Of a stretch of 33,372 bases of DNA, positions 1-1,432 are shown piece by piece. This stretch comes from a virus. Lineage: Duplodnaviria; Heunggongvirae; Uroviricota; Caudoviricetes. The number at the start of each line of letters is the position of its first letter. Position 1 is the stretch's first letter. Made by a program: the position numbers and the translations under genes. The DNA lies in the IMG/VR virus record IMGVR_UViG_2534681662_000018; one strand, written 5' to 3'. The notes under the pieces were generated by a model. It was not told where the DNA came from and made no database searches. It saw nothing but the letters and a program-made list of their open reading frames with translations.

Positions 1-1260
1 ATGTTAGCTCGTTCAGGGAAGGTAAGCATGGCTACGAAGAAGAGAAGTGGAGAAGAAATAAATGACCGACAAATCTTATGCGGGATGGGTATCAAACTAT
101 GCCGCTTAACTGCGGGTATCTGCCTGGTAACTCAACTTGTGTTCCCTATGGCTGCGGCAGCACAAGGGGTGGTAAACGCCGCAACCCAACAACCAGTTCC
201 TGCACAAATTGCCATTGCAAATGCCAATACGGTGCCCTACACCCTTGGAGCGCTGGAATCGGCCCAAAGCGTTGCCGAACGTTTCGGTATTTCGGTGGCT
301 GAGTTACGCAAACTCAACCAGTTTCGTACGTTTGCTCGAGGTTTTGATAATGTCCGCCAGGGTGATGAACTGGATGTCCCGGCACAAGTTAGTGAAAATA
401 ATTTAACCCCGCCACCGGGTAATAGCAGTGGCAACCTTGAGCAACAGATAGCCAGTACTTCACAGCAAATCGGGTCTCTGCTCGCCGAGGATATGAACAG
501 CGAGCAAGCGGCAAATATGGCGCGTGGATGGCCTCTTCTCAGGCTTCAGGCGCAATGACAGACTGGTTAAGCCGCTTCGGTACCGCAAGAATCACGCTGG
601 GCGTGGATGAAGATTTTAGCCTGAAGAACTCCCAGTTCGATTTTCTCCATCCGTGGTATGAAACGCCTGATAATCTCTTTTTCAGTCAGCATACTCTCCA
701 TCGTACTGACGAGCGTACGCAGATTAACAACGGCTTAGGTTGGCGTCATTTCACTCCCACATGGATGTCGGGCATCAACTTCTTTTTCGACCACGATCTT
801 AGCCGTTACCACTCCCGCGCCGGCATTGGCGCGGAGTACTGGCGCGACTATCTAAAATTAAGCAGTAACGGCTATTTGCGACTGACCAACTGGCGCAGCG
901 CACCTGAACTGGACAACGATTATGAAGCACGCCCGGCCAATGGCTGGGATGTACGCGCAGAAGGCTGGCTACCCGCCTGGCCGCACCTTGGCGGTAAACT
1001 GGTCTATGAACAGTATTATGGCGATGAAGTGGCCCTGTTCGATAAAGACGATCGGCAAAGTAATCCTCATGCCATAACCGCTGGACTTAACTATACCCCC
1101 TTCCCGCTGATGACCTTCAGCGCGGAGTAACGTCAGGGTAAACAGGGCGAAAATGACCCCCGTTTTGCCGTCGATTTTACCTGGCAACCTGGCAGCGCAA
1201 TGCAGAAACAGCTTGACCCGAATGAAGTCGCTGCACGGCGTAGCCTTGCAAGCAGCCGTT
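1..1260 (+). pseudogene. Host inverse-autotransporter adhesin gene (intimin/invasin family, YeeJ-like from memory), 5' portion, disrupted
   Basis: ORF 1..558 (LysM-like N-terminal region) and ORF 528..1130 (beta-barrel-like region) read as one protein split across two frames, implying a 1-nt frameshift in the 528-558 overlap. An in-frame TAA at 1128-1130 is followed by the same frame staying open to 1260. Sequence switches to Mu left end at 1261. Confidence 0.6.
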
Positions 1261-1432
1261 GTATTGATTCACTTGAAGTACGAAAAAAAACGGGAGGACA
1301 TTGGATTATTCGGGATCTGATGGGATTAGATTTGGTGGGGCTTGCAAGCCTGTAGCGCAAATTTTAGTCGTTAATCAATGAAACGCGAAAGATAGTAAAA
1401 AATTGCTTTTGTTTCATTGAAAATACGAAAAA
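1261..1432 (+). repeat. Mu left end (attL) with three MuA end-binding repeats (L1 about 1266-1287, L2 about 1370-1391, L3 about 1409-1430)
   Basis: Three copies of the roughly 22-bp motif ending in CGAAA(A) are visible: TGATTCACTTGAAGTACGAAAA, AATCAATGAAACGCGAAAG, TTTCATTGAAAATACGAAAA. Terminal TG at 1261-1262. Confidence 0.85.

Follow-up and report, generated by a model that had tools for sequence, protein, structure and literature searches.

Left end and GCCGT target-site duplication of a Mu-like prophage in the yeeJ pseudogene of Escherichia coli 2788150

The viral record IMGVR_UViG_2534681662_000018, a stretch of 33,372 nucleotides (nt) referred to here as the window, runs from bacterial DNA into DNA resembling phage Mu, and the transition raises a narrow question: which base is the first of the inserted element, and which five host bases were duplicated when it inserted? 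The original prediction placed the last host base at 1260 and the first Mu base at 1261, with CCGTT (1256–1260) as the duplicated target. Our analysis confirms the sharp host/Mu boundary and moves it by one base; Mu starts at 1260 and the host ends at 1259. We are highly confident that window position 1260 is the first base of attL, and that the element is a Mu-like prophage integrated in yeeJ of E. coli 2788150 via MuA-catalysed DDE transposition. Both junctions, a single-copy empty site, TG...CA termini, matches to the Mu end sites, and near-identical A and B genes were all observed directly. The junction is a canonical, textbook Mu junction of an already known kind, and there is nothing novel in the junction itself.

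At the left junction, TGTATTGATTCAC is present once in the window, starting at 1260, and window positions 1260–3260 align with bases 1–2001 of the phage Mu reference (AF083977.1/NC_000929.1, 36,717 bp) at 99.0% identity (E = 0). The left end of Mu opens with TG (Mu bases 1–2), found here at 1260–1261 on the plus strand and aligned with base 1 of AF083977.1. Upstream of it, positions 1–1259 (plus strand) are host DNA, 99.8% identical to E. coli 401651; they hold the 5′ part of a pseudogene allele of yeeJ, which encodes an inverse-autotransporter adhesin, downstream of mtfA and tRNA-Asn. Position 1260, a T, fits host and Mu alike, because the host base following the pentamer GCCGT (1255–1259) is T and Mu base 1 is also T; from the left junction alone, this base is unassignable, and the one-base shift of the original prediction follows from the same coincidence. 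Complete E. coli genomes offer four independent insertions of Mu-like elements; in each of them, as in the Mu reference, T precedes GTATTG/GTATTGATTCAC, and the flanks of these four insertions are unrelated (…TTCAG, …TCCAG, …CCGCG, and …CCGAT). Since the T is kept regardless of what lies next to it, it belongs to Mu, and the pentamer adjacent to the element is GCCGT. An assignment of host DNA up to 1260, with Mu from 1261 and CCGTT as the duplication, is compatible with the reach of host similarity, since the empty site also has T after GCCGT; however, it would leave Mu with GTATTG as its start and without the terminal T, whereas the reference and all four independent insertions start with TG.

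The right end provides a second view of the same pentamer. The window corresponds to positions 73,085–106,456 of contig AQDT01000039.1 (106,458 bp; E. coli 2788150, GCA_000355595.1), with 0 mismatches in 14,578 bases compared; the contig was recognised by an exact match to the MuA sequence of the window, and is the one contig on record with exactly that MuA. Because the window stops 2 bp short of the end of this contig, the right Mu end is not on it. The right end was located on AQDT01000040.1, the next contig of the same assembly (L004 in the coordinates below), outside the window as anticipated; its expected position, about 35.5 kb downstream, was not borne out, as it lies 36.8 kb from the left end and on a different draft contig. 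The 851 bases at the end of the window and those at the start of AQDT01000040.1 are identical (100%), and the two contigs therefore join. With the window numbering carried on across this join, the right tip falls at 38,063, which gives a prophage of 36,804 bp.

On AQDT01000040.1 the right Mu tip, ...GCCGCTTCA, occupies L004 5534–5542 and ends in CA; it is followed directly by the right copy of GCCGT at L004 5543–5547. The junction reads ...GCGCCGCTTCA, then GCCGT, then TATGATC...; over a longer stretch it reads ...GTGCGCCGCTTCA, GCCGT, TATGATCTGG, and with further flank ...TTTCGTGCGCCGCTTCA, GCCGT, TATGATCTGGTGGATCGCAAC.... An identical right junction is found in the independent Logan assembly SRR446750_401 (contig L005), whose run, SRR446750, is probably that of E. 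coli 2788150. The left copy of the duplication (1255–1259) is the same 5-mer, and the chance of a flanking 5-mer recurring at the right end is ~1/1024. The predicted 5-bp duplication is thus present at both ends with a different identity: the five bases directly outside ...TTCA, the place where CCGTT was to be sought, are GCCGT. The string CCGTT does also occur near the right end, one base further from the Mu tip than GCCGT. A CCGTT duplication is refuted by the right-junction sequence.

The Mu-free strain 401651 retains the empty site, which reads ...AGCAGCCGT followed by TATGATC... (over a longer stretch, ...GCAAGCAGCCGT TATGATCTGG...) and contains GCCGT once. When the two flanks are rejoined with one copy of GCCGT, they differ from this site by 3 mismatches over 2,759 nt, without any insertion or deletion. 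The flanks accordingly join into a continuous yeeJ, with the insertion point between codons R411 and Y412 of K-12 YeeJ; the expectation of an uninterrupted host gene was correct as to continuity, although the gene was already a pseudogene (see below). Giving the T at 1260 to the host formally allows a 6-bp duplication, GCCGTT, to be read at either end of an element short of its first base. Such a reading demands a stagger of 6 bp, which is without precedent, and a Mu terminus that lacks the conserved TG; it is simpler to suppose that the host base following GCCGT happens to equal Mu base 1, a 1-bp coincidence with a chance of 1 in 4. The 6-bp version is indistinguishable from the 5-bp version by sequence alone; it was rejected on the invariant Mu terminus and the known 5-bp stagger of MuA, and we consider it vanishingly unlikely.

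The two pentamers also predict different proteins at the right junction. The open reading frame (ORF) that leaves the Mu right end and enters the remaining yeeJ was modelled under GCCGT and under CCGTT, and both products were looked up by exact sequence. The GCCGT-predicted product (MRRFSRYDLV..., MRRFSRYDLVDRNNN…FES, 113 aa) is on record as EMW41684.1/WP_001721529.1, "adhesin domain protein [Escherichia coli 2788150]"; the CCGTT-predicted product is absent from the protein collection by exact-sequence look-up. A homology search with the predicted product missed EMW41684.1, which sits in a 3,104-member YeeJ cluster with a long representative. The deposited ORF (L004 5530–5871) begins with a GTG located in the R1 site of Mu and reads on into yeeJ; the 113-aa "adhesin domain protein" is a chimeric insertion by-product that starts inside the Mu right end. 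A comparable by-product is found at the left junction, where a chimeric 51-codon ORF (1200–1355, plus strand) runs in translation from a yeeJ ATG across the junction to a TAG inside Mu; no such gene was found among the gene calls on record.

The 5-bp target consensus of Mu in vitro is 5′-CYSRG, which is dictated by MuA and not by MuB, and a central CGG is favoured in vivo (PMC7350765). Read on either strand, GCCGT carries the Y-S-R core at positions 2–4, and CGG is central in its complement, ACGGC. CCGTT violates this core, as its T at position 4 occupies the R position of N-Y-S-R-N. Taken with the right junction and the deposited protein, this leaves practically no probability for CCGTT as the duplicated target. 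By analogy with established Mu biochemistry, MuA bound to the L1–L3 and R1–R3 end sites would have joined each terminal ...CA 3′-OH to target phosphates; strand transfer would have been staggered by 5 bp across the two strands of GCCGT, and host repair of the two resulting 5-nt gaps would have left one GCCGT on each side. In other E. coli genomes, a wide variety of genes harbour Mu left ends, which indicates near-random insertion and no fixed att site.

Three points weigh against integration of a single Mu-like prophage at GCCGT. The outer G and T of this pentamer differ from the preferred C and G of CYSRG, and GCCGT is outside the eight most preferred pentamers (PMC7350765); the strand-transfer chemistry is carried over from known biochemistry; and the two ends lie on separate draft contigs, so that their physical linkage depends on the overlap of 851 nt, a host gene common to both contigs, and the same duplication at either end, rather than on one continuous read. 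The last of these points would also fit contig ends derived from different Mu copies, or a join that is an assembly artefact, in which case the two 5-mers would not flank one element; the draft assembly does break within the prophage. That explanation is very unlikely in view of the 100% identity of the 851-nt overlap, the single contig on record with exactly this MuA, and the host flanks, which are neighbouring halves of a single gene and share exactly 5 bp. Additionally, the break falls in the inverted repeat of the G segment, where mixed orientations are expected to halt an assembler. This 55-nt repeat bounds the invertible G segment, with arms at L004 826–880 and 3808–3862. The window ends at L004 851; its last 26 nt (33347–33372, plus strand; L004 826–851) are the first 26 nt of the left arm, and the source contig ends 2 bp later. 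A stop of the assembly in this repeat would be expected if the culture held both orientations.

Integration of one prophage at GCCGT is also consistent with the layout of the element ends. MuA end sites were sought with an ungapped scan of both strands for an 18-nt end-site consensus. With at most 2 mismatches allowed, this consensus has only 5 matches in the whole window on both strands. L1 (core TCACTTGAAGTACGAAAA, 1269–1286) and L3 (core TCATTGAAAATACGAAAA, 1414–1431), both on the plus strand, match it with 0 mismatches. The scan missed L2, which is one base shorter than the consensus; we take L2 to be TCAATGAAACGCGAAAG (1374–1390, plus strand), a putative assignment made by eye from its position in the attL layout of Mu. 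At the right end, R2 and R1 lie on the opposite strand with 1 and 3 mismatches, respectively, and R3 lies on the plus strand with 0 mismatches, inverted relative to R1 and R2. The termini of the element are TG (1260–1261) and, at the right tip, CA.

Small differences from Mu were observed close to both ends. Within the R1 site, at L004 ~5521 (22 nt from the right tip), the NCBI assembly has T, in contrast to the G of both Mu and the Logan SRR446750 assembly; across 3,494 positions, the NCBI and Logan sequences disagree at 2. At window position 1290, A replaces the C of Mu, giving an A8 run in place of A7C just past L1. These differences at L004 ~5521 and window 1290 could be real variants or homopolymer or assembly errors.

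Searches for other occurrences of this insertion returned none. Megablast of the left junction did not find the same insertion in any of 5,426 complete E. coli genomes. Exact-pattern scans (with a 0–12 nt variable gap for the right junction) recovered neither junction from viral, GTDB-representative, or metagenome contig collections, which do not include the source assembly.

The host gene carries lesions that are independent of Mu. Relative to K-12, yeeJ has a 1-nt deletion (one G fewer) at 529–530 on the plus strand, which shifts the frame; an in-frame TAA stop at 1128–1130 (plus strand; FSAE*RQGK as compared with FSAEQRQGK) at a position that encodes Gln in K-12 YeeJ, presumably by a CAA codon; and a 1-nt insertion downstream of Mu, at L004 ~5860. 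Because both frameshifts and the stop are also present in the Mu-free strain 401651, yeeJ was already a pseudogene before Mu inserted. The annotation of 401651 likewise divides the gene into fragments marked "internal stop"; there, window positions 1–1259 correspond to fragments annotated with a LysM domain and an inverse autotransporter beta-domain, and the K-12 counterpart is yeeJ. The left flank is matched at ≥99% identity by 138 complete-genome records; the lesions were compared in 401651.

The window holds the left 32.1 kb of the prophage (1260–33372, plus strand; Mu coordinates 1 to ~31,979) in collinear blocks of 96–99% nucleotide identity to Mu. From it, 26 Mu proteins were recovered at 90–100% identity, all 26 of them full length. 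Behind the left end lie the repressor gene c (1598–2188, minus strand; 196 aa, 99.0% identical to Mu c, not the ts allele, Pfam HTH_Tnp_Mu_1) and ner (2358–2585, plus strand; 75 aa, 100% identical to Mu Ner). These are followed on the plus strand by the genes for the DDE transposase MuA (2587–4578; 663 aa, 98.5% identical to MuA, Pfam DDE_2 and Mu-transpos_C) and the target-capture ATPase MuB (4617–5555; 312 aa, 99.4% identical to MuB, Pfam Phage-MuB_C). The position of A and B near the left end, behind the repressor and ner, is that of Mu-type elements. On AQDT01000040.1 the gene content continues with S, U, U′, S′, gin, com, and mom, followed by the 113-aa ORF and then by a 2,139-aa Ig-like-repeat protein, which is the rest of yeeJ.

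The element resembles a prophage of Mu (Muvirus mu) in its left end from base 1, its TG...CA termini, its L1–L3 and R1–R3 sites with R3 inverted, and its 5-bp duplication; c, ner, A, and B, and then the late genes, occur in the same order at 90–100% protein identity. It differs from Mu in mosaic early segments, in the variable part of the G segment, and in length (36,804 bp as compared with 36,717 bp). Three segments of the early (semi-essential) region have no Mu megablast alignment (window ~5800–6400, 8305–8840, and 9030–9590), and a match to phage D108 extends ~290 nt further upstream into the first of these than does the match to Mu. These data indicate a mosaic make-up of the prophage, from phages of the Mu group. 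The species criterion of the International Committee on Taxonomy of Viruses is at least ~95% nucleotide identity across the whole genome. The comparison with Muvirus mu is block-wise: the collinear blocks are 96–99% identical, whereas a number of early segments, and the G segment for the most part, do not align.

Within the G segment, the variable part (S, U, U′, and S′; L004 852–3900) is unlike that of Mu, and only short stretches match Mu, on the opposite strand. Two Mu-like Yersinia phages that were isolated on Y. pestis EV76, vB_YpM_3 and vB_YpM_23, have a G segment that is 99.2% identical over 3 kb and in the same orientation, and their left end is 99.0% identical to that of this prophage. 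The comparison covers the left end and the G segment, and the records differ in kind, as those of the Yersinia phages are phage-particle genomes with packaged host ends and the element described here is a chromosomal prophage in E. coli. From this likeness it is conceivable, if rather doubtful, that the prophage is an intact, inducible Mu variant whose Yersinia-phage-like G segment gives it a host range other than that of classical Mu.

The significance of these results lies mainly in correct annotation. The exact limits of the prophage, from window position 1260 to base 5,542 of AQDT01000040.1, allow contigs 39 and 40 of GCA_000355595.1 to be merged. More generally, when one junction alone is visible, a single base that fits both host and element displaces the predicted target duplication. 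For the host, no working adhesin was lost to Mu at this site, as yeeJ was already dead. Should the prophage prove to be an inducible variant with altered host range, an E. coli lysogen known from a draft genome would represent a natural reservoir of such phages.
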